From: an uncultured Lentimicrobiaceae bacterium
GTDB taxonomy: Bacteria > Bacteroidota > Bacteroidia > Bacteroidales > WCHB1-69
NCBI GenBank assembly: GCA_964598505.1
Contig: CAZRCF010000001.1
Span: 23,479 to 71,479, forward strand
DNA: 48,001 bases
Direction of reading: 5' to 3'
Below the pieces are notes generated by a model. The model did not search any database, had not been told where the DNA came from, and saw nothing but the letters and a program-made list of their open reading frames with translations. Within the stretch, counting starts at the first letter, position 1. Each line of letters begins with the position of its first letter. The translations under genes were made by a program, and so were the position numbers. Shown piece by piece: positions 3,260 to 42,454 of this stretch.

Positions 3260-3448
3260 ATGATTTCAATAAGTAAATTATTTGAAGATGCTAATGTTCA
3301 CGCAGAACATCCAAGTGGAATAGTGGCACCTTTTGGAATTATTAATCCGAGTGAAAAAAATAAAATTACTTTAGGTCAGTTTCAAAATATGAACAAGCTT
3401 GATCTCGATAGTCAGGCAAAAGAAATGAATAGACTTCGAGGCGATTAA
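3260..3448 (+). CDS. Small protein with MISISKLFE leader (putative head-packaged protein)
   Basis: AAGGA RBS; the N-terminus matches the repeated leader family. Confidence 0.6.
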   Translation: MISISKLFEDANVHAEHPSGIVAPFGIINPSEKNKITLGQFQNMNKLDLDSQAKEMNRLRGD

Positions 3449-3463
3449 ATAACTCTTTAGGGG

Positions 3464-5113
3464 GTGATAACAATTTATATTCACAACTTCTATGCCGATT
3501 TATTACTCTCCGTAAGAGTATTATTTGATAATCATATATTTCAAAATAGAGATTACGTAAAAAGATATGAGTTTAATATGGGCAATAGAACAATTCAATT
3601 GCCCAAAGATTATAAACCAAATTATGAGTTTCCAAATATAATTGTTACTCTTAATGATGATACTCCAAGTTATGGTCAACGTCCGGATGTGTCTCAAAAG
3701 ATATCAGGATTTAATTTAGATCAAATACCAGTTCTTTATAATCAGACAAATGGTGATGTTTTATGTGTTCAAGAAGAAATGGTAAATGTTCCTATTACTT
3801 GTACAATTAATTGTGAATCCCAGTTTCAAGCAAAAGAGATTGCCGCTATAATAAAAAGATGGTTACCAGTAAATAAGTTTATTACATTCTTACAATTTAC
3901 TTCGTATTTGGAAGTATCACAAGAATTCTTATCTACAAATCATTTTGATCCGGCAATTCATGTAATATCTAATCTTTATACTAAATTAAATCATAGAACT
4001 GGAGATATCGATTATTGTTATTCTTTACAATATGAACCTTTTATACGACTTGATTCAGTTTCAACATCAATTCCGGATTCAACTCAAAGATCATTTCAGG
4101 TATCTGTTGATATTACATTTATGATTCAACAACCATTATATATGTTCAATGATAGACTTCAGACACCGATGGAAAGGATCAATATTAATATTAATCCATT
4201 ATCTAAGTTTGAACCAATTAGTGATTTTCCAACTAGTAAAATGATTAATGGATTAAATGCTGATGTCGCAGAACTTAAAAAAGGTTTCATTAGAAGGACA
4301 TTTCTTGTAGTAGATAACAATGTTGTGGAAACTGTATTAAATTTGGATTATGTAGTTCTTACATCTGATCAAGTTACAAACACATCTACTGGTGGGCAAA
4401 ATATTGCTGCGACTAAAGGAGCTGATGATTTTATTTATATTACTTTAAGAACCAGCGAGACAAAATATAGAACAAATATGAATACAATTCCATCTCCTGA
4501 TGGAGTTAATATTGTATTAAGTACAGATGAATATTTGAAAGTAACAAAAGATCTTGCCGGTACAATAACAGTTATATTACATAAAATAACTCAGAGAATA
4601 ACAGTTCAATTTGCTCTAACGGATCTACAATTAACAACTGCATACTCGTACAATTTATTTAGCGGGAATAATATGTTGTTGGATTATGAAGATTATACAT
4701 TAGATACGACTGCTAATTCTGTTACATTTAGTTTTGATAACAGTCAATTTTCATCTTATACACCATCAACTACAAATCCTTTAATAGTTCAGTTCTGTTT
4801 GAAAGATATTCCAGATGCTAAATCTCCATATGGTATTCCACCAAAAGTTGGATTGATGAAAGTATTTAATATTTCTCAAATAGCGGCTGAAATAACTTGG
4901 TCTTCTGATGAGGAAACAACCACACAAGTAGAGTATGGAACTACTATAGAATATGGTGCTTTCTCATCTTTAAAAGAAAAACTTACAATTCTACATCATG
5001 TTGTTTTACCTAGTTTAGGACCAAATACAACATATCATTATCGGGTAAAAGTTACAAATTTAATAGGTGAAGAATATTTATCTGAAGATTTTAGTTTTAG
5101 TACTTTAGTATAG
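3464..5113 (+). CDS. Structural protein (possible neck/tail-terminator-like N-domain) with a C-terminal fibronectin-III-like domain
   Basis: The C-terminus AEITWSSDEETTTQVEYGTT...HHVVLPSLGPNTTYHYRVKV...SEDFSFST is an FN3/purple-acid-phosphatase-N-type pattern. The N-domain assignment is a guess from context. Confidence 0.5.
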   Translation: MITIYIHNFYADLLLSVRVLFDNHIFQNRDYVKRYEFNMGNRTIQLPKDYKPNYEFPNIIVTLNDDTPSYGQRPDVSQKISGFNLDQIPVLYNQTNGDVLCVQEEMVNVPITCTINCESQFQAKEIAAIIKRWLPVNKFITFLQFTSYLEVSQEFLSTNHFDPAIHVISNLYTKLNHRTGDIDYCYSLQYEPFIRLDSVSTSIPDSTQRSFQVSVDITFMIQQPLYMFNDRLQTPMERINININPLSKFEPISDFPTSKMINGLNADVAELKKGFIRRTFLVVDNNVVETVLNLDYVVLTSDQVTNTSTGGQNIAATKGADDFIYITLRTSETKYRTNMNTIPSPDGVNIVLSTDEYLKVTKDLAGTITVILHKITQRITVQFALTDLQLTTAYSYNLFSGNNMLLDYEDYTLDTTANSVTFSFDNSQFSSYTPSTTNPLIVQFCLKDIPDAKSPYGIPPKVGLMKVFNISQIAAEITWSSDEETTTQVEYGTTIEYGAFSSLKEKLTILHHVVLPSLGPNTTYHYRVKVTNLIGEEYLSEDFSFSTLV

Positions 5114-5125
5114 AGGTAATTAAAT

Positions 5126-5722
5126 ATGATTGCAATTACAAAAGTTTTATTTGAAATTATACCACAAACATTATATGGACAAATAGTTCCACCTGCAGTC
5201 AAAGGTGCACAAACAATTCAACAGAATCCTGCACCTAATATAACAACCGCTGCTAAAGGTTTAGTTAAACCATATACAAATACTGGTGCTTTAAAAACTC
5301 CTGCTGGATTTCCAGTTGCACAAGCTCCTGTTCAAGTTGCTCGAGCTGCTCCAGTAGTTGCACAGTCACAACCAGTTGTACAGGCTCCAGTTATAGCTCA
5401 ACCTCAGGTTCAAACAATACCTGCTCCACAAGTGACTGCTGGTGGTGTTCCGGTTCCTCAAGTTGTTGGGGGACAAAAAGCAGTTGAATCTGAACTTGCA
5501 CATAATGCAGAAGCAAAATCAGTTCAACAAAATGTTTCTGGATCACAAGCCACTGGAGAATTATTAAAAAGAGGGGCACAATCGGCTGGTGAAGCAGTTG
5601 GAAATATGGGTAAAAAAGTTGCTGAATTCGCACACGAAAGTCCATTGGCAGCTGGTATTGGTGCTGGTGCAATTGGTGCGCTTGGAATACGAAAATTAAT
5701 TAGTAGAAATAAACCAGCTTAA
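5126..5722 (+). CDS. Leader-bearing P/Q/V/A-rich protein with a C-terminal membrane-anchor-like segment
   Basis: MIAITKVLFE leader; C-terminus KKVAEFAHESPLAAGIGAGAIGALGIRKLISRNK. Confidence 0.7.
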   Translation: MIAITKVLFEIIPQTLYGQIVPPAVKGAQTIQQNPAPNITTAAKGLVKPYTNTGALKTPAGFPVAQAPVQVARAAPVVAQSQPVVQAPVIAQPQVQTIPAPQVTAGGVPVPQVVGGQKAVESELAHNAEAKSVQQNVSGSQATGELLKRGAQSAGEAVGNMGKKVAEFAHESPLAAGIGAGAIGALGIRKLISRNKPA

Positions 5723-5745
5723 AAATATTTTAAAGGAGAAGAAAC

Positions 5746-6291
5746 ATGCTTACAGAAGTAATAAGCAAATTAGATCGAGTCGTTTTAGAACTTGCTCTTA
5801 AAGATGCAATTTATGATATGTGTTTTTATGAGGGCGAAGAAATATCAAACATTCTTGAAAGTTACTTACAAAATGTAATTGCCAAAACAAATACAGAAGA
5901 ACAAAATACTATGTTTTTCGAATTAGCAATGCCTTATATTGAATCATCGATCATGGTATATGGTGCTGGTCTTTATGAAGGAACACCTGAAATGATTGCT
6001 CCTGCTGATAAAAATACAATGCAGCAGAAATTGGGTGGTCCTAAAGGTCCTTTGGTAGGAACTCAAATGATTGATAAGAATCGTGCATTGGTTCATAAAC
6101 TTCATGAATCTGAAGAAACTATTTGGGAAGATGTTGCAAAAATAATATTTGAAGAAGGAATTCTTGAAGCTGGAATTAAGAAAGCAAAAGGAAAAGGTAA
6201 GGGATTAGTATCCACAAAGTCTTCATTTGGAAAAAATTTACACTTTAAACTTCCAGAAGGTGGAACACCTAATCCTCCTGAAAACAAATAA
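5746..6291 (+). CDS. Hypothetical protein; N-domain paralogous to 16698..17360
   Basis: DAIYDMCFYE..ISNILESY versus DAFKDMCMYE..IIKILENY. Confidence 0.65.
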   Translation: MLTEVISKLDRVVLELALKDAIYDMCFYEGEEISNILESYLQNVIAKTNTEEQNTMFFELAMPYIESSIMVYGAGLYEGTPEMIAPADKNTMQQKLGGPKGPLVGTQMIDKNRALVHKLHESEETIWEDVAKIIFEEGILEAGIKKAKGKGKGLVSTKSSFGKNLHFKLPEGGTPNPPENK

Positions 6292-6314
6292 TAAAAATTC
6301 TAAGGAGTAATAAT

Positions 6315-6659
6315 ATGAATCTTAATGAATTAATTTTAGAATCAATCAAAACAAGTATAAGTACTAAAAAAGATCAAACTTCAGTACAATATGGTGGAGA
6401 TAAGAAAGCATCTATTAAGGATGCTAATGTTGATAATAAGAACCAATCCTCACTTGAAGCAGGTCTTAAAGGAAAATTATCCAAGAATAACACAAATCCC
6501 CAAGGCGAAGGTGGTAAGGATCTAATTGCACGAAATCCAGATTTAGCAGCTATTGTTGCTGCTGCAGTTGCTGCTGTTCAAAAAGCAGGACAGGGATCAG
6601 TTCAAAATACCAATCCTTCGGTTCCTAAATTTACACCACCTGAGCCTGCGACTAAATAG
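6315..6659 (+). CDS. Hypothetical protein with MNLNELILES leader
   Basis: AAGGAG RBS; contains RNPDLAAIVAAAVAAV, a degenerate form of the ENPG anchor motif. Confidence 0.65.
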   Translation: MNLNELILESIKTSISTKKDQTSVQYGGDKKASIKDANVDNKNQSSLEAGLKGKLSKNNTNPQGEGGKDLIARNPDLAAIVAAAVAAVQKAGQGSVQNTNPSVPKFTPPEPATK

Positions 6660-6668
6660 GGGGTACAT

Positions 6669-7091
6669 ATGATTTCGATTGTTAAGTATATAAGTGAAGT
6701 TGGTGATTTTTCAACATATGCTCCAGAACAACAAGGTCCTTTAACAGGTGCTTATAAATATTGGACAGGTGGTAGAACAGGAGCAGATGTTAAAGAAATG
6801 GCAAAACGAGCTTCTGAAAAAACTGCTGGTGAATGGGCAGAGAGATTGAGAAAACATATGGCTACACACACTCCTGGAAATACTACAGGAGCAGCTGGTG
6901 ATATGTCTGGATCTGAAGCAGCTGGAATTGCTCTTAAAAAAGGTGCACAATCTGCTGGTGAAGCAGTTGGAAGTTTGGGTAAGAAAGCCGCTGAGTTCGC
7001 TGGCGAACATGCTGGTGCTGCTGGGCTGATTGCCGGTGGTCTTGGAGCGGCAGCTATACTTGCTGCTCGAAGGAAAAAAGCACAACAATAA
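6669..7091 (+). CDS. Leader-bearing tail-anchored protein, paralog of 5126..5722
   Basis: MISIVKYISE leader; shares LK(K/R)GAQSAGEAVG..GKK.AEFA.E, followed by a hydrophobic run and RRKK. Confidence 0.7.
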   Translation: MISIVKYISEVGDFSTYAPEQQGPLTGAYKYWTGGRTGADVKEMAKRASEKTAGEWAERLRKHMATHTPGNTTGAAGDMSGSEAAGIALKKGAQSAGEAVGSLGKKAAEFAGEHAGAAGLIAGGLGAAAILAARRKKAQQ

Positions 7092-7129
7092 AAATATTTT
7101 AATTAAAACCTAATGGAGGAAAAGTTTAT

Positions 7130-7417
7130 ATGAATATTCAAGAAATAATTGATAACTCTATCGATTCAGTAATCAAAGAAGATGTAAAAGAAGATGCTAA
7201 AGAAGCTGCTTCTAATATAAAAGAAAAATTAGTTTCTGCTGGTAAAAAAGTTGCCGAAGGTGCAGAAGATGCTGGTGAAAAAGCAAAAGGGATGGCAGCT
7301 AAAGTTGCTGAAATAGTAAAAGAAAATCCTGGAATATCTGCTGCTGTTGCTGCTTCTCTTGCAGCTGGTGTTGGTGCACTTGCATTAAGAAAGAAACTGA
7401 AGAGCGCTTCTAAGTAA
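7130..7417 (+). CDS. Tail-anchored ElaB/YqjD-like small protein (array member)
   Basis: K/E/A-rich helix followed by VKENPGISAAVAASLAAGVGALALRKKLK. Confidence 0.7.
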   Translation: MNIQEIIDNSIDSVIKEDVKEDAKEAASNIKEKLVSAGKKVAEGAEDAGEKAKGMAAKVAEIVKENPGISAAVAASLAAGVGALALRKKLKSASK

Positions 7418-7433
7418 ATATAAGGAGACAATT

Positions 7434-7775
7434 ATGTCATTAGATGTTAATAAGATTATAATGAGTTCTTTAGATGAAGTTGTTCTTTCTGAAGGTGTAA
7501 TTGACGATCTTAAAGATAAAATAGCACTTCATGGTATAAAAGATATAGATAATATTGAAGTTGCAAAAACTGGTGGCCATGCCGCTAAACTTTTATTTAA
7601 AGGTGGAGAACCGGAATTAGCTGCTGGTGTTGGTGCTAGAACCTTGAGAGCTCAAATTCAAGAGAATCCTGGTTTATCAGCAGCTGTTGTAGCAGCTCTT
7701 GCAGCTGGTGCTGGTGGTCTTGCACTCAGAAAGAAACTTAAAAAAGCTAAAGAAGCTAAGGAAAATAACGATTAA
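7434..7775 (+). CDS. Tail-anchored array member
   Basis: MSLDVNKIIMSS leader; IQENPGLSAAVVAALAAGAGGLALRKKLKK. Confidence 0.7.
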   Translation: MSLDVNKIIMSSLDEVVLSEGVIDDLKDKIALHGIKDIDNIEVAKTGGHAAKLLFKGGEPELAAGVGARTLRAQIQENPGLSAAVVAALAAGAGGLALRKKLKKAKEAKENND

Positions 7776-7786
7776 GGGAGATTATT

Positions 7787-8188
7787 ATGGCACTTGATGT
7801 GAATAAGATTATTGAAGAATCTCTCAAAGAAGCAAATGCACCTATTACAGAATCTTTACAAGGTGGTATGGAAGCCGCAAAAAGAAGTGGAAAAGCAGCA
7901 GTTGATATTTTTAGAGGTGGATCTAGTCAAGATGAAGCACAGGTTGGAGCAGATACTTTTGCTCAAGCAGCAAAGAAAATTGGTGAGGGTGAACCCGAAT
8001 CAATTGTTGCTGCACACTATCTGAAAAAGGCTAGTGCTGCTGCCGGTGAAACTGGTATAGGCTCAAAAATAGCTAGTATTGTAAAAGAGAATCCTGGAAT
8101 ATCTGCTGCCGCTGCTGCCGCTTTAGCAGCTGGTGTTGGTGCACTTGCGTTGAGAAGAAAGTTGAAGAAAATGAAGGACGCTAAATAA
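7787..8188 (+). CDS. Tail-anchored array member
   Basis: MALDVNKIIEES leader; VKENPGISAAAAAALAAGVGALALRRKLKK. Confidence 0.7.
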   Translation: MALDVNKIIEESLKEANAPITESLQGGMEAAKRSGKAAVDIFRGGSSQDEAQVGADTFAQAAKKIGEGEPESIVAAHYLKKASAAAGETGIGSKIASIVKENPGISAAAAAALAAGVGALALRRKLKKMKDAK

Positions 8189-8204
8189 TTACGAGGTAAT
8201 ATTT

Positions 8205-8633
8205 ATGACACTTGATGTGAATAAAATTATTAGTGAATCTATAAATGAAGTTATTACCGAAACATCAGGAGGTGCCGTTGCTGGCACTCTTCTTGGAGTG
8301 GGATCTACTATTTCGATACCATTACCAGGTAGTACAATAGCTGGAGGAATAGCTGGAGGAATGTCTGGTAGTAAATTATCAGAACATATGAAAACTCCAG
8401 GAGAAAAAATATCAGATGCCACAGAAGAAGCAAAAGAGAAATTAAAATCTGCTGGTAAGAAAATTTCAGCTAGTGCAGAAGATGTAAAAGATAAAGCAGC
8501 TTTAATGGGTAAAAAGATAGTTGATATTGTCAAAGAGAATCCTGGAATATCTGCTGCTGCTGCCGCTTTAGCAGCTGGTGTTGGTGCACTTGCGTTGAGA
8601 AAGAAATTGAAGAAAGCAAAAGAATCAAAATAA
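8205..8633 (+). CDS. Tail-anchored array member with an extra glycine-zipper segment
   Basis: MTLDVNKIISES leader; GGAVAGTLLGVG...AGGIAGGMSG; VKENPGISAAAAALAAGVGALALRKKLKK. Confidence 0.7.
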   Translation: MTLDVNKIISESINEVITETSGGAVAGTLLGVGSTISIPLPGSTIAGGIAGGMSGSKLSEHMKTPGEKISDATEEAKEKLKSAGKKISASAEDVKDKAALMGKKIVDIVKENPGISAAAAALAAGVGALALRKKLKKAKESK

Positions 8634-8664
8634 TAATCTAATTAATTTTTGGAGGAATAGAATT

Positions 8665-8964
8665 ATGTTTGAAAAAGTAAATGCATTGTTAGAATCAGAA
8701 GGTACGGAACTTGTTGAGAAACACGAAAATGTTATTGTGGAAGCAATGACTTTGGTTAATGATTTTCAGAAGAATATCAAAGCCTTCATTTTGAATAATC
8801 CTAGTGAGTTCATTGGTGAGAATACTGATGATACTTATAAGAATATGAGAGTATTCACAGAGGTAGCTTTATCTCAGTATGTTTCTGAAATATCTAATCT
8901 TTATGGTTCGGCTATTCAGGAACAAGTTGTAATCGAAGACAAGGGCCTTCAGGAATATTTGTAG
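8665..8964 (+). CDS. Hypothetical acidic protein with an NALLES leader
   Basis: GGAGG RBS; 99 aa. Confidence 0.65.
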   Translation: MFEKVNALLESEGTELVEKHENVIVEAMTLVNDFQKNIKAFILNNPSEFIGENTDDTYKNMRVFTEVALSQYVSEISNLYGSAIQEQVVIEDKGLQEYL

Positions 8965-8972
8965 GATTTTAT

Positions 8973-9248
8973 ATGACTATGAAATTTGATGCTTTATTGA
9001 ATGAAGTTGATCAAGATACTCTTGCGAGATTATCCGTTGCAGTGACGGCAGGTGTTATTTCTGCCGTCGCAGCAAGAAAATTATACAAGCAATATAAAGA
9101 TAATCAACTATTAAGAAAATATGGTGGAGCGCAAGAAGAAGATAAGCATCAAAGTCTTGGTAATGATCTTAGGAGTATAATTCCTGATTTAGTAGATATC
9201 AACGCTACAAGACATTTTATTGATGCTAAAAAACACATAGGTAGATAA
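8973..9248 (+). CDS. Small protein with a hydrophobic segment followed by RKLYK
   Basis: MTMKFDALLNE, then LSVAVTAGVISAVAARKLYK. Confidence 0.6.
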   Translation: MTMKFDALLNEVDQDTLARLSVAVTAGVISAVAARKLYKQYKDNQLLRKYGGAQEEDKHQSLGNDLRSIIPDLVDINATRHFIDAKKHIGR

Positions 9249-9252
9249 AACT

Positions 9253-9492
9253 ATGATAACTGTATCAAAATTATTTTTAATAGAAGAAGGAATATTTAAT
9301 TGGGCAAGAGGAAGTATAGGTAGCAGATTTAGTGGAAGTCGAGCAGCACAGATGAATCGATCTACACCAAGACCTTTAGAGACTGGTGCTGTAAAAGTAG
9401 AAAAACTTAAACAAGCACAATCTCCGATGGTAGAAGCTGCTCCGAAGAAGCCTGTTGGATTTGGTTTAAAACCATCTGGTATAACAACTTGA
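9253..9492 (+). CDS. Small basic protein with MITVSKLFLIEE leader
   Basis: The leader is followed by GIFNWARG; this is the last + strand gene before a convergent hairpin. Confidence 0.6.
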   Translation: MITVSKLFLIEEGIFNWARGSIGSRFSGSRAAQMNRSTPRPLETGAVKVEKLKQAQSPMVEAAPKKPVGFGLKPSGITT

Positions 9493-9500
9493 ATAAAAAA

Positions 9501-9542
9501 ATTCCACCGGCAAGATCTAGTTAAAGATCTTGCCGGTGGAAT
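9501..9542. terminator. Hairpin between convergent genes carrying the AGATCTTGCCG core (copy 2)
   Basis: 18-bp perfect stem ATTCCACCGGCAAGATCT / AGATCTTGCCGGTGGAAT. The A-tract at 9495-9501 gives a U-tail for the minus-strand transcript. Confidence 0.8.
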
Positions 9543-9547
9543 AGTAT

Positions 9548-10867
9548 TCAATTAATTTTTATTTGTGTTATACTTCCAAATGTTGAATCTAAGGTTGAAT
9601 AATCACCATCTTTGGTTATAATAAATACAAGCGGAAGATTGTTTTTTATCCACTCATAATTTTTGTAGCAACTTTCGATATCAGAACACATATCTGTTAA
9701 GCTTATAACCATGCTTAATTCATCTTTATCCTTGTCCCAATATTCTGTTTTAATTTCATCAAATAAGTATCTGTGAGATGTTCCACCTCGTCCTTGATAT
9801 CCAGTTTTACTTATGAAGTCATAGAAATTACCAATATTATCTTTGGTAAATTCTTGACGCTGGTGTATTTGTGTATCATGAGTGATTAATTTTATAATTT
9901 TAAAATATCTCATGCTATTTTCAATGACGCTGGAAAACTTCTTTAAACTTTTATCTGAAATTGAACCAGATGTATCTACACCGATAATTAAAGTACCTGT
10001 TCCTTCACTATCTTCAATCATTGCATATCCTGGAAGATTTATTTTATGGGGAATGAAGTATTTATTTAAACATCGCCAGGTACGTTCATCTGGTTTCATA
10101 ATTACATTTGTTTTAATTGCTTTTTCAACTAGAGTTTCCCAAGGAATTTCAACCTTTAAAATTCTATCTAAGTATGATACTAGATAGCTTGGTGAATCAC
10201 CTTTGGATTTAATATTTTCAAAAATGGCTCTAGCTTCAGCAACAATCTGATCAGTTAATGCAGCCTTAATGTTTTCATCTTCATCTAATGCAGATGAAAT
10301 ACCACCAAGGTTAGTAACAACTGTGAATAAGTAATTTCCTGCACCGTCAGTTACGTCAATTGACATTTCGCCGGTTTGATTATACTTAACAGAATTTGGA
10401 TGATTTTTAATCCAATCATATGCATATTCAACAGTGCAGTCATATCGTTGATTGTATAAGTCTTCAATTATATTATATTGATTGTTATATGGTTTAATTA
10501 TACTATCCATTTTCTTTAAGAATACTTCAATAACGTGATCGCACGCAATGTTCCATATATTAAAATCTCTATCACCTCTTCTTATTCCATGTTTATTTAG
10601 AATATGAAGAAGTTCATGACAGAGAATGAAAACCAAATTATTATAAGTATAATCAGATTTTAACAAATAGTGTTCATTAACATGGATTGCACCACTTTCT
10701 AACTTAGAAGGATCATTTAGATTAAATTTAACAAACGCTTCTATTTGTGGTGAAAGAGGTTCAATTTCCCATGCAAATTTATTAGCCATCATTCCAAAGA
10801 AGAATAGAGAATTTGTAAAAAGCTTTAATTTAGCTTTTCTAATTAATAAATCGATTGTTGTATACAT
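9548..10867 (-). CDS. DUF2201-type HExxH metallopeptidase-like plus vWA domain protein
   Basis: FILCHELLHIL...WNIACDHVI; vWA MIDAS-like IGVDTSGSIS and GRGGTSH; adjacent to an AAA ATPase. Confidence 0.85.
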   Translation of the reverse strand: MYTTIDLLIRKAKLKLFTNSLFFFGMMANKFAWEIEPLSPQIEAFVKFNLNDPSKLESGAIHVNEHYLLKSDYTYNNLVFILCHELLHILNKHGIRRGDRDFNIWNIACDHVIEVFLKKMDSIIKPYNNQYNIIEDLYNQRYDCTVEYAYDWIKNHPNSVKYNQTGEMSIDVTDGAGNYLFTVVTNLGGISSALDEDENIKAALTDQIVAEARAIFENIKSKGDSPSYLVSYLDRILKVEIPWETLVEKAIKTNVIMKPDERTWRCLNKYFIPHKINLPGYAMIEDSEGTGTLIIGVDTSGSISDKSLKKFSSVIENSMRYFKIIKLITHDTQIHQRQEFTKDNIGNFYDFISKTGYQGRGGTSHRYLFDEIKTEYWDKDKDELSMVISLTDMCSDIESCYKNYEWIKNNLPLVFIITKDGDYSTLDSTFGSITQIKIN

Positions 10868-10872
10868 ATTTA

Positions 10873-12051
10873 TTATACTCCCATATCAGAAGTGATGTCT
10901 ACGATCTCCTTTAATGTTGACCTTGTCAAATCTGGTTCGGTCTTTTGAAGTTGAGCAATAATTTTGTTGAGAATATTTTTCTTATTTGTAGCTTTTTCAA
11001 ATTGTCTTATTTCTTTAATTATCATGATTGAAAGCTCTGATGCATCTTTCATAAATAATCCAATTAAATGTGAAATATTCGGCAAGAACTTATCACGATC
11101 ACTTCTACCGATATAATTTGTTGTTAAAGCATAAGCTAATGCATAAGTTTTAACAGATTCAGTTGGAAGTTGATATTCCTTATAATTTGCAAGAATGTTA
11201 TCAATGTCAAATTCAGAATAAATTTTATAGTATGTTGCGAATTCAGAAGCTCCTTCTTTTCCAACATAACCTGAACCAAGATACAAACAAGTATCAGTTC
11301 CTATAATTTTTTTATGATATTCTTCTCTTGATTTAACTTCATTTGCAAATCTCGTCCAAGATCTAGGTGATCCCCAAGCAACATCAACTTGTTCTTCTTC
11401 ATGGAAGAATTTTTGATATTGAAGATTTCCTAAGAAAGAAATAAATGCTGGATGAACTCTAGTTTCTTCTTTGAGAGCGAAATTCATTTTCCAACCATTA
11501 AAATCTGTATAAACGGGCATTAGAACACATCTGTTAACAATAGCACTAAACATTGATTTAGCTCCAGATTTACTACTTGTATTTCCAGCCATTACCATTG
11601 CACAATTATTTGGAATTTTATAACCTCTTAATGATCGTTCAGTAAAAAGCTCATATAATAATCCCATGTGAATTGGACTTAACAAATGTGCATCATCCAA
11701 TAGCCATACAACTATGGAATCTTTTTTTTGTTCAGATACATCATATAGAACTTTCATAATATCAGGAAATGACCAAATTGTTCCAAGAACTGGTTTTCCA
11801 TTAATCATAATTGTATCAAATTGTGGAATACCACCAGTTTCTTCAATTGGTTTTAATGCAAGATGGGTCGATACTACTCCAAATTCATATTCTTTACTTA
11901 GATAATGAATACTGGCTGTTTTTCCACCACCTGGTGCGCCACATATAAATGGAATACCAACATCAATTCCTTGTGTTTGTAAATGACAGTTCCATAGAAC
12001 CTCATTAATAACTTCGTGCAGTGCTTTTGAATTTTGAGAATCGTTAAACAT
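10873..12051 (-). CDS. MoxR-type AAA+ ATPase
   Basis: Walker A GAPGGGKT, Walker B LLDDA, sensor region VMAGN, arginine finger SAIVNRC; GGAGG RBS on the minus strand. Confidence 0.85.
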   Translation of the reverse strand: MFNDSQNSKALHEVINEVLWNCHLQTQGIDVGIPFICGAPGGGKTASIHYLSKEYEFGVVSTHLALKPIEETGGIPQFDTIMINGKPVLGTIWSFPDIMKVLYDVSEQKKDSIVVWLLDDAHLLSPIHMGLLYELFTERSLRGYKIPNNCAMVMAGNTSSKSGAKSMFSAIVNRCVLMPVYTDFNGWKMNFALKEETRVHPAFISFLGNLQYQKFFHEEEQVDVAWGSPRSWTRFANEVKSREEYHKKIIGTDTCLYLGSGYVGKEGASEFATYYKIYSEFDIDNILANYKEYQLPTESVKTYALAYALTTNYIGRSDRDKFLPNISHLIGLFMKDASELSIMIIKEIRQFEKATNKKNILNKIIAQLQKTEPDLTRSTLKEIVDITSDMGV

Positions 12052-13561: not shown

Positions 13562-14995
13562 ATGTCATTGTCTAATGCTTTTTATCTTGAAGTTGCTAAA
13601 GGTAATGTAACTGGTTACACCGCGAAAGAGATTATTGGTTTGAATGGGGCTGTTGCTGAAACTGAAGATGTTTGGAATCAGGGTGGTTCAATCACTCAGG
13701 TTGCTACCGCAGCAGTTTTGTATATTTCATCAACAAATGTTCTTGATGTAACTCAGTATGTTACTGTTACAGGTCTTGATGACAATTATGATGAAATTAC
13801 TGAGGTAATTGGTCCATTGACTGGTAAAGTTAGAGTTGCTGGAACTGTACCTTTTTTGAGAGTGAATAGTGCAACTATGTCTACAACACTAGGTAATGCT
13901 GGTGTTACAACTGCAGCACTGTTATATGCATCTTCATCTGATGCTGCAGATGTTGGTCAAATTGTTACAGTTACAGGTCTTAATGCGGATTCTGAAGTAA
14001 TTACTGAAACATTTACTCTGAATGGCCAAACTAAAATCACTGGAACGAAATATTTCTTGAGTGTGATCAGTGCTACAATATCTGCCGCAGCAGCGGGTAC
14101 AGTTTATGTGTATTTTACAAGTGCTATTGTAACTGGTATTCCTAGTGTTACAACTACAATACAAGCACTTATTCCTATGGCTCTTGCTGGTAAAGTATAT
14201 GTATTTTATGCGGTTGCTGTTGATGCTGGTGGTGTTCCAACCAATCTTGCTAAAGTCCAGGCTGCTATTGACATTGCTACTTTACAGGCATATAATGCAA
14301 TTTATACAGTACCAAGAAACAAAAACTTATATATGACAAGTTTGCGTTATCGATCAACAGCTGCAGCAGGAGCATTTGATGTTATTTTGTCTGTTATTAG
14401 AAAAGTTTATGGTGGATCAAATGAAACAATTAAAATATTAAAATATGTAGATCAAGCAACAACAAAATATACAGATGGTCAAATGATATTTACTGATCAA
14501 CCTGTTATATTCCCAGCTAAGTCTGAAATGAGAATTACTGCGAATCTTGCTGGTGGTACAGCTCTCAATCTTACGATTGAATCTAATTTTGTTGAAGAGG
14601 TTATAACCGCTGTTCCTAATACAGTATCAGTTATGACTAAGGTTGAATATCTCGCATATCTTGCTGCAAGTGGTCCGGCTACATTAGCTACCCAGAATTA
14701 TTGGTTGATTGGTCTTGATTCGCTTCCAAGCGTAGCACCCACGACTGTAAATCTTGATGATGTTCTGACTACGATTACTGGAGCTGCACTTATTTATACT
14801 GTTGCAGCTGACACTGAAGTTGCTTTTGATATTTCATATTTCACTAGTGGTAAATTAGTATTAACTGATAAGAAAGCAGTTGTAACTATTTTGCGTTGCG
14901 TTGATAGCACTGCCGCTGTTAAATATGTTCTTGCACCAGTTAACACTTTGTTTAGTCTTGGTAATGTTAAGAAAGTATCTTATTTGAAAGTCTAA
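13562..14995 (+). CDS. Beta-rich virion structural protein, paralog of 15025..16179, with an internal duplication
   Basis: AAGGAGG RBS; two copies of the LY.SS...VTGL....ITE...G..FL.V.SAT module; C-terminus nearly identical to the next gene (VKYVLAPVNTLFSLG.VKKVSYLKV). Confidence 0.7.
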   Translation: MSLSNAFYLEVAKGNVTGYTAKEIIGLNGAVAETEDVWNQGGSITQVATAAVLYISSTNVLDVTQYVTVTGLDDNYDEITEVIGPLTGKVRVAGTVPFLRVNSATMSTTLGNAGVTTAALLYASSSDAADVGQIVTVTGLNADSEVITETFTLNGQTKITGTKYFLSVISATISAAAAGTVYVYFTSAIVTGIPSVTTTIQALIPMALAGKVYVFYAVAVDAGGVPTNLAKVQAAIDIATLQAYNAIYTVPRNKNLYMTSLRYRSTAAAGAFDVILSVIRKVYGGSNETIKILKYVDQATTKYTDGQMIFTDQPVIFPAKSEMRITANLAGGTALNLTIESNFVEEVITAVPNTVSVMTKVEYLAYLAASGPATLATQNYWLIGLDSLPSVAPTTVNLDDVLTTITGAALIYTVAADTEVAFDISYFTSGKLVLTDKKAVVTILRCVDSTAAVKYVLAPVNTLFSLGNVKKVSYLKV

Positions 14996-15024
14996 ATTCA
15001 TAATTTATAGGAGGAATTTAAAAT

Positions 15025-16179
15025 ATGTCATTACCCATTACAGTTGTTAATGATTTTTATCTTGAAGTTACCAAAGGAAATATTGCTGGATTTGTTGCAA
15101 AAGATCTTTTGGGTATGAATGCTGCGGTTGGTGGAACTGAAGATGTTTGGAATCAGGGTGGTTCAATTACACAAGTTTCTACAGCTGCTCTTTTATATGT
15201 TTCTTCTACAGCTGCAGCAGATGCTGCATTGGCTGTTGTTATCACTGGTCTTGATGCCAATTATGATGAAATTACAGAAACTATTTTAACTGCTACGCCG
15301 GATGGACAAATTAGAGCCGCTGGTACAAAGGCATTTCTAAGAGTCAATTCTGTAACTATGGCTGTAGCTCCAGCTGGTAAAGTTTATGTATATTATGCAA
15401 CAGCAGCTGGTGTAGGAACTGGTATTCCTGCCGATGCTACTAAAATACAAGCAGCTGTTGATATTGCTGGAACTCAAGCATATAATGCTATTTATACAGT
15501 ACCAAGAAATAAAACTTGGTATATGACTGGTTTGCGTTATCGTTCAACAGGTTCTGTTGCTACACATAATGTTATCCTTTCTGTTATTAGAAAAATTTAT
15601 GGAGGATCAAACGAAACTGTTAAAACTGTGAAATATGTAGATTTAGCAACAACACTTTACACAGATGAACAGATTCAGTTTGTTGATCAGCCAGTTATAT
15701 TCCCAGCCAAATCTGATATTAGAATTGCTGCTGGTCTTTCTGGTGGTACAGCTCTTGACATTGCTATTGAAGTAAATTTTGTTGAAGAGTCCGTAGAAGT
15801 TACACCCTCAGTTGTTACTGTTATGAATAAAGCTGAATATCTTGCATATCTTGCTTTAGGTCCTACACTAGCTTCTCAGAATTATTGGTTAATTGGACTT
15901 GATGAACTTCCAGCTACACTTCCTACGACTGCAAATCTTGATGATGTTGTAGCTACGATTACTGGATTGTCAACTGGTTATACTGTTGCAGCTGACACTG
16001 AAGTTGCTTTTGATATTGCATATTTTTCAAGTGGTAAATTAGCAGTAACTGACAAGAAAGCAATACTAACGATTATGCGTTGTATTGATAATGGTGGTGT
16101 TGTTAAATATGTTCTCGCACCAGTTAATACTTTGTTTAGTTTAGGTGGTGTTAAGAAAGTGTCTTATTTGAAGGTCTAA
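15025..16179 (+). CDS. Beta-rich virion structural protein, tandem paralog
   Basis: Shares EDVWNQGGSITQV, AYNAIYTVPRNK and QNYWLIGLD with the preceding gene. Confidence 0.7.
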   Translation: MSLPITVVNDFYLEVTKGNIAGFVAKDLLGMNAAVGGTEDVWNQGGSITQVSTAALLYVSSTAAADAALAVVITGLDANYDEITETILTATPDGQIRAAGTKAFLRVNSVTMAVAPAGKVYVYYATAAGVGTGIPADATKIQAAVDIAGTQAYNAIYTVPRNKTWYMTGLRYRSTGSVATHNVILSVIRKIYGGSNETVKTVKYVDLATTLYTDEQIQFVDQPVIFPAKSDIRIAAGLSGGTALDIAIEVNFVEESVEVTPSVVTVMNKAEYLAYLALGPTLASQNYWLIGLDELPATLPTTANLDDVVATITGLSTGYTVAADTEVAFDIAYFSSGKLAVTDKKAILTIMRCIDNGGVVKYVLAPVNTLFSLGGVKKVSYLKV

Positions 16180-21501: not shown

Positions 21502-21777
21502 ATGATCAGTATTACGAAAAGTTTAGGTGCAGTAATTTGTAACAATTTAAACGAGGGTATATTAGATACAATTAATAGTAAACTTGTTAATTCAAAATTT
21601 GGTAAAGCAGTTGATAATATTAATGATAGAATAGACAAGTCATTGCAGAAGACAGCACCTGGTAGAGTATATATGGGACTTGAAAATAAAACTACTGACT
21701 TAGTTAATAAAGCTAGTAATAAACTTAGTAATTTAAATGATCAATTACATCGAAGGAATTTTAAAATAAGGAGATAA
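21502..21777 (+). CDS. Basic helical protein with leader MISITKSLGAVICNNLNE
   Basis: Leader nearly identical to that of 23970..24173. Confidence 0.65.
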   Translation: MISITKSLGAVICNNLNEGILDTINSKLVNSKFGKAVDNINDRIDKSLQKTAPGRVYMGLENKTTDLVNKASNKLSNLNDQLHRRNFKIRR

Positions 21778-23969: not shown

Positions 23970-24173
23970 ATGATTAGTATTACGAAAAGTTTAGGTGCAG
24001 TGATTTGTACTAGCTTAAATGAAGGATTCTTAGACACTATTAAGAATAAAATAAAATCAACCACATTAGATAATAAAGAGAAACAGACAGCCCATGGAGT
24101 AATTGGTGATCATAAAAATGCAGAGAAGAAAATTCTAATGTTGGGGTATATTAAAAATCTGAAAAGAAAATAG
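23970..24173 (+). CDS. Small basic protein with leader MISITKSLGAVICTSLNE
   Basis: AAGGAG RBS; leader paralogous to 21502. Confidence 0.65.
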   Translation: MISITKSLGAVICTSLNEGFLDTIKNKIKSTTLDNKEKQTAHGVIGDHKNAEKKILMLGYIKNLKRK

Positions 24174-37835: not shown

Positions 37836-37874
37836 TTAATCGGCAAGATCTTTAAACTAGATCTTGCCGATTAA
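37836..37874. repeat. Hairpin with the AGATCTTGCCG core (copy 3)
   Basis: 16-bp perfect stem TTAATCGGCAAGATCT / AGATCTTGCCGATTAA, loop TTAAACT; abuts the next RBS. Confidence 0.8.
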
Positions 37875-42407: not shown

Positions 42408-42454
42408 AACCGGCAAGATCTCTTTAAAATAATTTTATCTAGATCTTGCCGGTT
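42408..42454. repeat. Hairpin with the AGATCTTGCCG core (copy 4)
   Basis: 14-bp perfect stem AACCGGCAAGATCT / AGATCTTGCCGGTT with a 19-nt AT-rich loop. Confidence 0.8.

Follow-up and report, generated by a model that had tools for sequence, protein, structure and literature searches.

The window analysed here is a 48,001-nucleotide stretch of metagenomic contig CAZRCF010000001.1. It comes from a freshwater phage, and positions 5126–9492 hold an array of small proteins. The array is a tandem family of paralogues that gains and loses members. Three modules make up each protein: an N-terminal tag, a variable Lys/Glu/Ala amphipathic or disordered middle and a C-terminus related to that of the DUF883 proteins (DUF883_C), which include ElaB, YqjD and YgaM of Escherichia coli. 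Profile comparisons indicate that this C-terminal module is either a remote relative or a very close structural mimic of DUF883_C, beyond composition and layout. The tag has the pattern of the T4 capsid-targeting sequence, and carriage in the virion is plausible.

Paralogy and conservation of the array

Eleven tightly packed genes on the + strand fill positions 5126–9492. A preliminary description of this DNA had listed eight of the open reading frames (ORFs). All eight are present with the same starts, and they have AGGAG-type ribosome-binding sites and spacers of 4–38 nt. The other three genes (5746, 8665 and 9253; genes are named by start position) belong to the same operon and encode tail-less proteins with a like N-terminus. 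A common C-terminal design had been ascribed to 5126, 6669, 7130, 7434, 7787 and 8205, and the ORFs and motifs bear this out. Briefly, a K/E/A helix precedes (D/E)-(N/H/S)-P in these six genes. The tails follow the pattern ...KK-x-AE(I/F)-(V/A)-(K/G/H)-E-(N/H/S)-(P/A), then an uncharged Ala/Gly-rich run of 17–19 residues and a basic end (RKKLKK.., RKLISRNK or RRKKAQQ). Genes 6315 and 8973, described earlier as degenerate versions, are indeed so: 6315 has decayed and ends in a non-basic tail, and in 8973 the element lies directly after the leader.

Paralogy is visible in the DNA itself. Tail segments of 84 nt are 67–87% identical among the array genes, and leader segments of 48 nt are 69–83% identical. 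Genes 5126 and 6669 also share a 114-nt segment at 74% identity. These two genes form subfamily A; subfamily C comprises 7130, 7434, 7787 and 8205.

Four related contigs from freshwater jumbo phages carry the array at the corresponding position: L002, L013, L017 and L010/L011 (the last two are the same phage). Across the four loci a tail-less frame is kept, consisting of orthologues of 5746, 6315, 8665, 8973 and 9253, and the tail-bearing members number from 3 to 6. We searched 1.84 billion proteins with a family profile. This recovered 347 clusters at 50% identity with E<=1e-3, and 68 with E<=1e-10. Among the matches listed, most follow this three-part plan, in which a variable region separates such a leader from the tail, and the Pro kink and uncharged helix of 17–19 residues are kept across the 347 clusters. 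Given the synteny in related contigs and the 347 clusters, the array is not a product of chance. A scan of IMG/VR with the subfamily A alignment returned one locus.

Domain shuffling is evident among the relatives. In P0096, an N-domain of the 5746 type is fused to a DUF883_C-like tail (BLASTP E=2e-14, residues 1–73 of 5746). P0090 (710 amino acids) and P0205 (422 amino acids) contain the module (K/E)(E/H)(N/H)P, zipper and basic end 3–5 times in one polypeptide. Each represents either an array fused into one chain or a membrane protein with several passes. Decay of a member was also observed: P0041 (L017, 7719–8492), a subfamily A orthologue, ends ...ENPLAAGVALGGAWNEKIIK and has lost the zipper end and basic tail.

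Relatives were absent from cultured phages when the locus and four of its members were compared, by blastn and tblastn, with 50,697 GenBank phage records. A search of the PDB sequences with the family profile gave no match, and Pfam, PHROGs and NCBIfam assigned the array proteins to no significant family. Weak library matches were to Apolipoprotein, Gram_pos_anchor, GvpQ, tape measure and F0F1 subunit b models; we attribute them to the K/E/A helices and hydrophobic tail.

Relationship of the C-terminal module to DUF883

DUF883 is represented in Pfam by PF05957 and by PF19029, the "DUF883 C-terminal glycine zipper region". A hidden Markov model (HMM) search with these families had been proposed as a check in the preliminary description, and no window protein reaches a curated threshold. 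For PF19029, which has a gathering score of 27 bits, no window protein matched at E<=10. PF05957, the N-terminal part of DUF883, gave a single non-significant match (8205, E=6.5). In NCBIfam, 7130 matched a PRK10132/YgaM-type model at E=1.2; ElaB matches the same model at 3.5e-14 and, as a control, its own NCBIfam model at 4.5e-62.

Profile–profile comparison gave a different picture from the curated thresholds. The family aligned with E. coli ElaB, YqjD and YgaM at a probability of 78% (P=1.8e-5). When the C-termini of 172 family members were aligned with those of 120 enterobacterial DUF883 proteins using hhalign, the match probability was 92–94% (P 2e-7 to 5e-7), with a score of 42–44 over 42 columns. 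Column shuffles that preserved the pre-helix, transmembrane and tail blocks (n=60) scored 11.4 +/- 2.5, with a maximum of 20.9, and the reversed profile scored 18. Subfamily C aligned with DUF883 at a probability of 94% over 49 columns in hhalign; across runs the probability was 92.4–94.0% and the lowest P was 1.4e-7. Subfamily A is linked to subfamily C at a probability of 97%. Hence, the earlier designation of the array proteins as ElaB/YqjD (DUF883)-like stands for the C-terminal 45 or so residues, which score above shuffles. It does not extend to the curated thresholds or to the N-terminal domain.

Single proteins were also compared. Against a DUF883 HMM, 7130 alone scored 15.9 bits (P=3.9e-7) over HMM positions 38–113, and the maximum of 250 block shuffles was 9.2. 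With hhalign, 7130 matched DUF883 at a probability of 80% (P=1.4e-5). Gene 8205 alone scored 9.1 bits, which is not above its own shuffles (maximum 10.3). Among 137 relatives, 20 give sub-threshold matches to PF19029 at E<=0.1, with a best E value of 1.9e-5. Relatives reach 12–18 bits with this model, P0134 scoring 17.6 bits (E=0.003).

The motif (Y/F)-V-x-E-x-P-W, one transmembrane helix and RR had been quoted for the C-termini of ElaB, YqjD and YgaM, and these motifs are correct in NC_000913. The window genes have (I/F)-(V/A)-K-E-N-P-G instead. Thus, Glu and Pro are kept and the Trp is lost, Gly following the Pro. Variants with (D/E)(H/N)PW occur among the relatives, and W or Y is found in P0087, P0134, P0147 and P0173. 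P0205 contains an intermediate form, KKHPWTSAGIGAG, that bridges the phage tails and DUF883_C.

In overall build, both families are helical, of about 100 residues, with a helix-(V)-x-E-x-P segment, a Gly/Ala-rich transmembrane helix and a basic end. Several features set the phage proteins apart. The phage helix is richer in Ala and Gly (0.64 vs 0.41). The phage tail is about 11 residues with a charge near +5, compared with RR; its averages are 10.9 residues and net +4.9, and those of DUF883 proteins are 4.7 residues and +2.4. The N-terminal DUF883 domain was not detected, and variable or disordered segments take the place of the middle. Finally, the proteins here are phage-encoded, arranged in tandem and equipped with a portable N-terminal tag.

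The helix can probably span a membrane, as suggested by its hydrophobicity, by the repeats in P0090 and P0205 and by a predicted structure. The anchor is as hydrophobic as that of ElaB, with Kyte–Doolittle values of 1.8–1.9 vs 1.85. On the summed Hessa scale its best 19-mer scores +1.6 to +1.9 vs +2.4 in ElaB. An AlphaFold2 model of 8205 has a helix at residues 5–22, disorder at 22–66, helices at 69–89 and 91–111, a kink at P113 and a continuous C-terminal helix at 113–141 with predicted local distance difference test (pLDDT) values of 82–95. The model is weak overall (pLDDT 61.6, predicted template modelling score 0.28).

Ribosome tethering was suggested in the preliminary description. The N-terminal DUF883 domain of YqjD has been reported as the ribosome-binding part. 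The subfamily C leader aligns with the DUF883 N-helix LLSETLEEVL in the expected register, at a P value (0.079) that is not significant. As the N-terminal domain was not detected, either in this way or with PF05957, ribosome binding finds no support.

YqjD itself found no genuine phage gene in the 50,697 GenBank phage records, only fragments of host DNA. In the full-text literature on DUF883 together with phage, we found no description of phage-encoded DUF883 proteins. Our searches of phage records and full text are consistent with the earlier statement that an array of this kind had not been described.

A short N-terminal tag

By its sequence, the phage that carries the array is a contractile-tailed jumbo phage and only distantly T4-like. 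Its TerL is 23–27% identical to those of T4-type and Flavobacterium 'immuto' phages, and the backbone also includes a gp5-like hub, a UvsX-like recombinase and a tail-tube protein.

Two forms of N-terminus were distinguished. The type 1 tag is MI(S/A)I(T/V)K(Y/V)(L/I)xE, 10 residues long, and conservation drops abruptly past E10 (37 distinct N-termini). The type 2 leader, MxLDVNKIIxES(I/L)xEVIxE, is an acidic amphipathic helix of about 19 residues with up to three I-x-E sites. The serine codons of the tag vary between TCA, TCC and AGT; hence, selection acts on the tag peptide and not on a DNA motif. We also considered the leader as a DNA-level motif, such as a promoter or ribosome-binding context, and rejected this because synonymous codons differ.

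T4 internal proteins IPII and IPIII begin MKTYQEFIAE, as read from the T4 record. This sequence, MISIVKYISE and MIAITKVLFE have a common spacing, M-x-x-hydrophobic-x-x-hydrophobic-hydrophobic-x-E, and the likeness is one of pattern, in which homology is not demonstrable. The 10-residue tag, its identical hydrophobic spacing and its (L/I)-x-E ending thus parallel IPI, IPII, IPIII and Alt of T4. Within the first 22 residues, 160 of the 172 family members contain (L/I/V/M)-x-E. The consensus for cleavage by gp21 is (L/I)-x-E.

The tag is not confined to the array. Type 1 and related forms (MISISKLFE, MISISYLFE, MISIIKY.., mostly ending in (L/I)-x-E) occur at 3260, 16242, 17380, 18214, 18760, 21502, 23970, 24711, 29535 and 29990 and, beyond the window, at 17862 of L006. 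Pfam identifies several of the products: 18760 is a C39 peptidase (E=1e-15), 29535 a Tad6-like Thoeris inhibitor (E=5e-14), 16242 a DUF5661 protein and 29990 a DUF5662 protein. An M48 peptidase (32774) has a related N-terminus. Conversely, the tag is not on the TerL, UvsX-like, tube, hub, fibre, ATPase or DUF2201 proteins. The tag may define a whole "tagged" proteome, possibly capsid cargo. Two of the small proteins concerned, 21502–21777 and 23970–24173, are a pair of paralogues that both start MISITKSLGAVIC..LNEG.

The preliminary description took the array for apparent virion cargo. This remains plausible, and its main support is a short tag common to unrelated proteins, as in T4 internal proteins. 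The latter vary widely and have nothing but the targeting sequence in common; as here, the tag is found on unrelated small proteins including one of anti-defence type (PMC3012670). Further parallels are the basic mature proteins (predicted here) and the clustered genes with turnover, those for T4 internal proteins lying in hypervariable loci. The T4 proteins differ in having no hydrophobic C-terminal anchor, and their packaging and cleavage are established, whereas those of the array proteins are predicted.

Possible function of the array proteins

We tentatively favour a model, possible rather than probable, in which the array encodes internal proteins that are directed into the capsid, leave it by ejection and then lodge in the inner membrane of the host by means of a glycine-zipper anchor. 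The tag would act like the T4 capsid-targeting sequence and bring the proteins into the prohead core. The prohead protease would then cut it off after (L/I)-x-E. The mature proteins, predicted to be basic and Lys-rich once the tag is removed, would stay with the DNA in the head and be ejected at infection. Once past the tail tube, the marginally hydrophobic zipper helix would enter the host inner membrane unaided, with the membrane potential favouring entry of the polybasic tail. Small-xxx-small faces could drive oligomerisation in the membrane, with the K/E/A amphipathic helices resting on its surface. The oligomers might form or support the wall of the pore through which the DNA enters; they might also, or instead, reseal it. 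The turnover of members from one related phage to another is consistent with adaptation to the envelopes or defences of hosts.

Parts of this model have precedents. Tail-anchored proteins of E. coli may need no help with insertion when their transmembrane segments are of low hydrophobicity (PMC6794478). The Agrobacterium type VI secretion system effector Tde1 requires a glycine zipper to permeabilise the target cytoplasmic membrane; it resembles the array proteins in its consecutive small-xxx-small motifs and in delivery by a contractile injection machine (PMC10240207). The two differ in that the zipper of Tde1 is N-terminal, Tde1 is a toxin and not a phage protein, and there is no homology. 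Podovirus ejection proteins are reported to form conduits across the envelope. The principle proposed here is similar to that described for T7 gp14/15/16, P22 gp7/16/20 and N4-like ejection proteins, which are carried in the virion, leave with the DNA and insert into or span the host envelope. There is no sequence relationship, and those proteins are large and single-copy, in contrast to small multi-copy paralogues in a contractile-tailed jumbo phage.

Several points weigh against the capsid-to-membrane model. Packaging, cleavage and membrane insertion are all predictions from sequence. The DUF883 homology lies in about 45 Ala/Gly-rich residues, and Ala/Gly helices can also serve soluble protein–protein packing. 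For subfamily A alone the match to DUF883 is weak (probability 21%, P=1e-3). The 62 kb formed by the window, L006 and L010 yielded no recognisable gene for a prohead protease, portal or major capsid protein, so that a T4-type protease in this phage has to be assumed. Extending the window by 10 kb on each side added only tail-fibre genes, a 1923-residue protein with an SLT domain and proteins that match nothing familiar. The leader of subfamily C is perhaps an inherited DUF883 N-helix (P=0.079) and, if so, need not be cleaved. The C39 peptidase of the phage offers an alternative route of processing. Such peptidases remove double-glycine leaders.

Alternatively, the proteins may be made late, remain unpackaged and sit in the inner membrane as tail-anchored proteins in the manner of ElaB and YqjD. 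There they could shield a membrane under stress or reshape it, bring a partner to it, or hold assembling proheads on it via the N-terminal helix until cleavage by the protease releases them. We regard this as somewhat unlikely. The only characterised relatives, the DUF883 proteins, are cytoplasm-facing and tail-anchored, and 7130 aligns with ElaB along most of its length. The register between the subfamily C leader and the DUF883 N-terminal helix is a further, weak argument, and transmembrane segments of low hydrophobicity can insert unaided from the cytoplasm. T4 proheads begin on the inner membrane, which also counts in favour of an intracellular role. However, such a role accounts neither for the occurrence of the 10-residue tag on many unrelated proteins nor for its mimicry of the T4 capsid-targeting sequence. 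The DUF883 N-domain, too, was not detected. Furthermore, because the phage tail is much longer and more basic than that of DUF883 proteins, its outward translocation from the cytoplasm would be harder. The same tag, together with the basic, Lys-rich composition of the predicted mature proteins, would also suit ordinary internal head proteins of the core or "inner body", in which zipper and basic tail served packing and neutralisation of DNA charge with no membrane role. Consistent with this, lysines of T4 internal proteins contact the packaged DNA (PMC3012670), and the internal proteins packaged by giant phages are reported to include large families of paralogues. Nonetheless, we consider this explanation distinctly unlikely, as the module is similar, position by position, to a known membrane anchor. 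Hydrophobic segments are also repeated internally in P0090 and P0205, and conservation of the Pro kink and uncharged helix over 347 clusters argues against it too.

Small size, one hydrophobic helix, a highly charged basic C-terminus and a place among late genes could also describe a set of proteins akin to holins and antiholins, or membrane blockers of incoming DNA. Such a part in lysis timing or superinfection exclusion is very unlikely. No endolysin or spanin is nearby, the sole lytic domain being in the 1923-residue virion-type protein 35 kb off, and neither PHROG nor Pfam yields holin matches. In addition, there are at least six paralogues with soluble N-terminal regions of 60–170 residues, and the common tag would again be unexplained. 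Least probable of all, to the point of being nearly negligible, is that the DUF883 likeness reflects convergence or a low-complexity artefact, the tails being generic C-terminal signals for sorting or anchoring, like LPXTG or PEP-CTERM. An Ala/Gly-rich composition can inflate profile scores, and weak matches were seen to Gram_pos_anchor (E ~0.1), LAETG (E=0.07) and VPLPA-CTERM (E=2). All of these sorting-signal matches are far under their cut-offs, and shuffles that preserve the blocks abolish the DUF883 signal (42 to 11.4 +/- 2.5). Moreover, the N-termini are acidic amphipathic helices and not Sec signal peptides, and intermediates with (K/E)(H/N)PW...GIGAG connect the two families.

Families of internal head proteins in phiKZ and SPN3US offer another comparison. 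These giant myoviruses are reported to package many processed paralogous internal proteins, and tail anchors are not described for those families. No significant similarity was found; one relative gave a single faint phiKZ_IP match (E=0.019). The cleavage motif of the phiKZ/SPN3US type is (S/A/G)-x-E, with variable propeptides.

A broader scenario is speculative, and we think it improbable as a whole. A lineage of freshwater jumbo phages may have captured the ElaB/YqjD anchor module, joined a capsid-targeting tag to it and multiplied the fusion into an array that diversifies. Virions would then inject self-inserting tail-anchored proteins, which would reach the host inner membrane from outside and could build or reseal the entry site or recruit host factors. 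The same tag would mark a broad injected cargo, including Tad6-like anti-defence proteins and peptidases.

Crossing of the inner membrane by contractile-tailed phages is still poorly understood. We know of no small self-inserting ejected proteins in such phages. If the capsid-to-membrane model is correct, the family of 347 clusters would be a concrete and testable candidate for this step, and DUF883_C would be a portable membrane-insertion unit reused by phages. If the tag is a capsid-targeting signal, the injected cargo of uncultured jumbo phages could be predicted from sequence, and the tag might provide a packaging handle for engineering. Should the proteins act inside the cell instead, they would be the first phage homologues of the ElaB/YqjD stress proteins. 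DUF883-type anchors and T4-type tagged internal proteins are both already known; what appears to be new is their combination.

Genes of the array and their surroundings

The first gene of the array, 5126–5722 (+), encodes a subfamily A protein of 198 amino acids. It has the 10-residue tag MIAITKVLFE, a P/Q/A/V-rich middle, SGSQATGELLKRGAQSAGEAVG..KKVAEFAHESP, an A/G zipper helix and the tail RKLISRNKPA; its orthologues include P0004, P0014, P0017 and P0021. The acidic, 181-residue product of 5746–6291 (+) has no tail, and orthologues are kept in L002, L013 and L017. Degenerate gene 6315–6659 (+; 114 amino acids) has the leader MNLNELILES, then RNPDLAAIVAAAVAAV and a non-basic, Pro-rich tail of 26 residues; its DNA still belongs to the D1 repeat family. 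The second subfamily A member, 6669–7091 (+), encodes 140 amino acids with the tag MISIVKYISE and the tail ..AEFAGEHAGAAGLIAGGLGAAAILAARRKKAQQ.

Subfamily C follows. Its minimal member, 7130–7417 (+), encodes 95 amino acids, of which residues 17–92 align with ElaB (101 amino acids); the N-terminal helix was matched by eye only. At 7434–7775 (+; 113 amino acids) a MSLDVNKIIMSSLDEV leader, IQENPGLS, the zipper and RKKLKKAKEAKENND are found. The remaining two members, 7787–8188 and 8205–8633 (both +), encode 133 and 142 amino acids, the latter being the protein modelled with AlphaFold2. Three small genes complete the operon. Gene 8665–8964 (+) encodes a tail-less acidic member of 99 amino acids (isoelectric point (pI) 4.3) with the leader MFEKVNALLESE, and has an orthologue in 4/4 loci. 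In the 91-residue product of 8973–9248 (+), an A/G hydrophobic run and RKLYKQYK stand directly after the leader (residues 16–42). The last gene, 9253–9492 (+), encodes 79 amino acids (pI 10.7) with the tag MITVSKLFLIEE and no hydrophobic run. A T4 late promoter, TATAAATA, was sought 5' of the array genes, and none is so placed.

The window belongs to a 256.7-kb contig, and the same phage was recovered as contigs of 205 kb (ERZ27262927 k141_123413) and 97 kb. All are from freshwater metagenomes; the phage is abundant in lake samples, and run X1 contains 99% of the locus. The G+C content is about 31%, and no tRNA genes were found within the window. The array sits inside a block of structural genes on the + strand. 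On its 5' side are collagen-like and laminin-G tail-fibre genes and a gene for a 549-residue protein ending in FN3 (3464–5113). The GTG start listed for the latter is doubtful, as L011 and L012 have 511 residues from a later start and L010 has 549. Consequently, its N-terminus, MITIYIHNFY.., is probably not a tag. On the 3' side, a convergent gene for a DUF2201 putative metallopeptidase/VWA protein is paired with a gene for a MoxR-like AAA ATPase. The pair occupies 9548–12051 (- strand), and its position is kept in 4/4 related loci. In L013, an IMG/VR relative, the array and the DUF2201 gene are separated by an inserted ORF of 349 amino acids (14480–15529) that the window lacks.

Further from the array, 13562–14995 and 15025–16179 encode paralogues of 477 and 384 amino acids with the common N-terminal sequence FYLEV(A/T)KGN(V/I). 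Both match phrog_8198, a family of unknown function. The 1923-residue protein is encoded directly 3' of TerL, from 44467 to beyond 48001 (L006, 11994–17765), and combines an SLT lytic transglycosylase domain with a C-terminal part resembling tail fibres or tail lysins. It is absent from the ORF list because the gene crosses the window end. A circular or concatemeric genome of about 54 kb was considered after a "780 aa" gene appeared at two loci, and was rejected, since these proteins show no relationship to each other and there is no overlap between the ends.

A strong hairpin at 9501–9542, with an 18-bp stem and the core GGCAAGATC...GATCTTGCC, separates the array from the convergent DUF2201 gene. 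It is likely to be a bidirectional terminator. Hairpins with this core recur at gene boundaries (2773–2815, 9501–9542, 37842–37868 and 42412–42450), some directly before the tail-tube and TerL genes, and half-sites are found at 4550, 21233, 28416, 32873 and 44177. In all, the core has 12 matches vs 0.23 expected. These hairpins probably form a phage-specific family of terminators or regulatory stem-loops.

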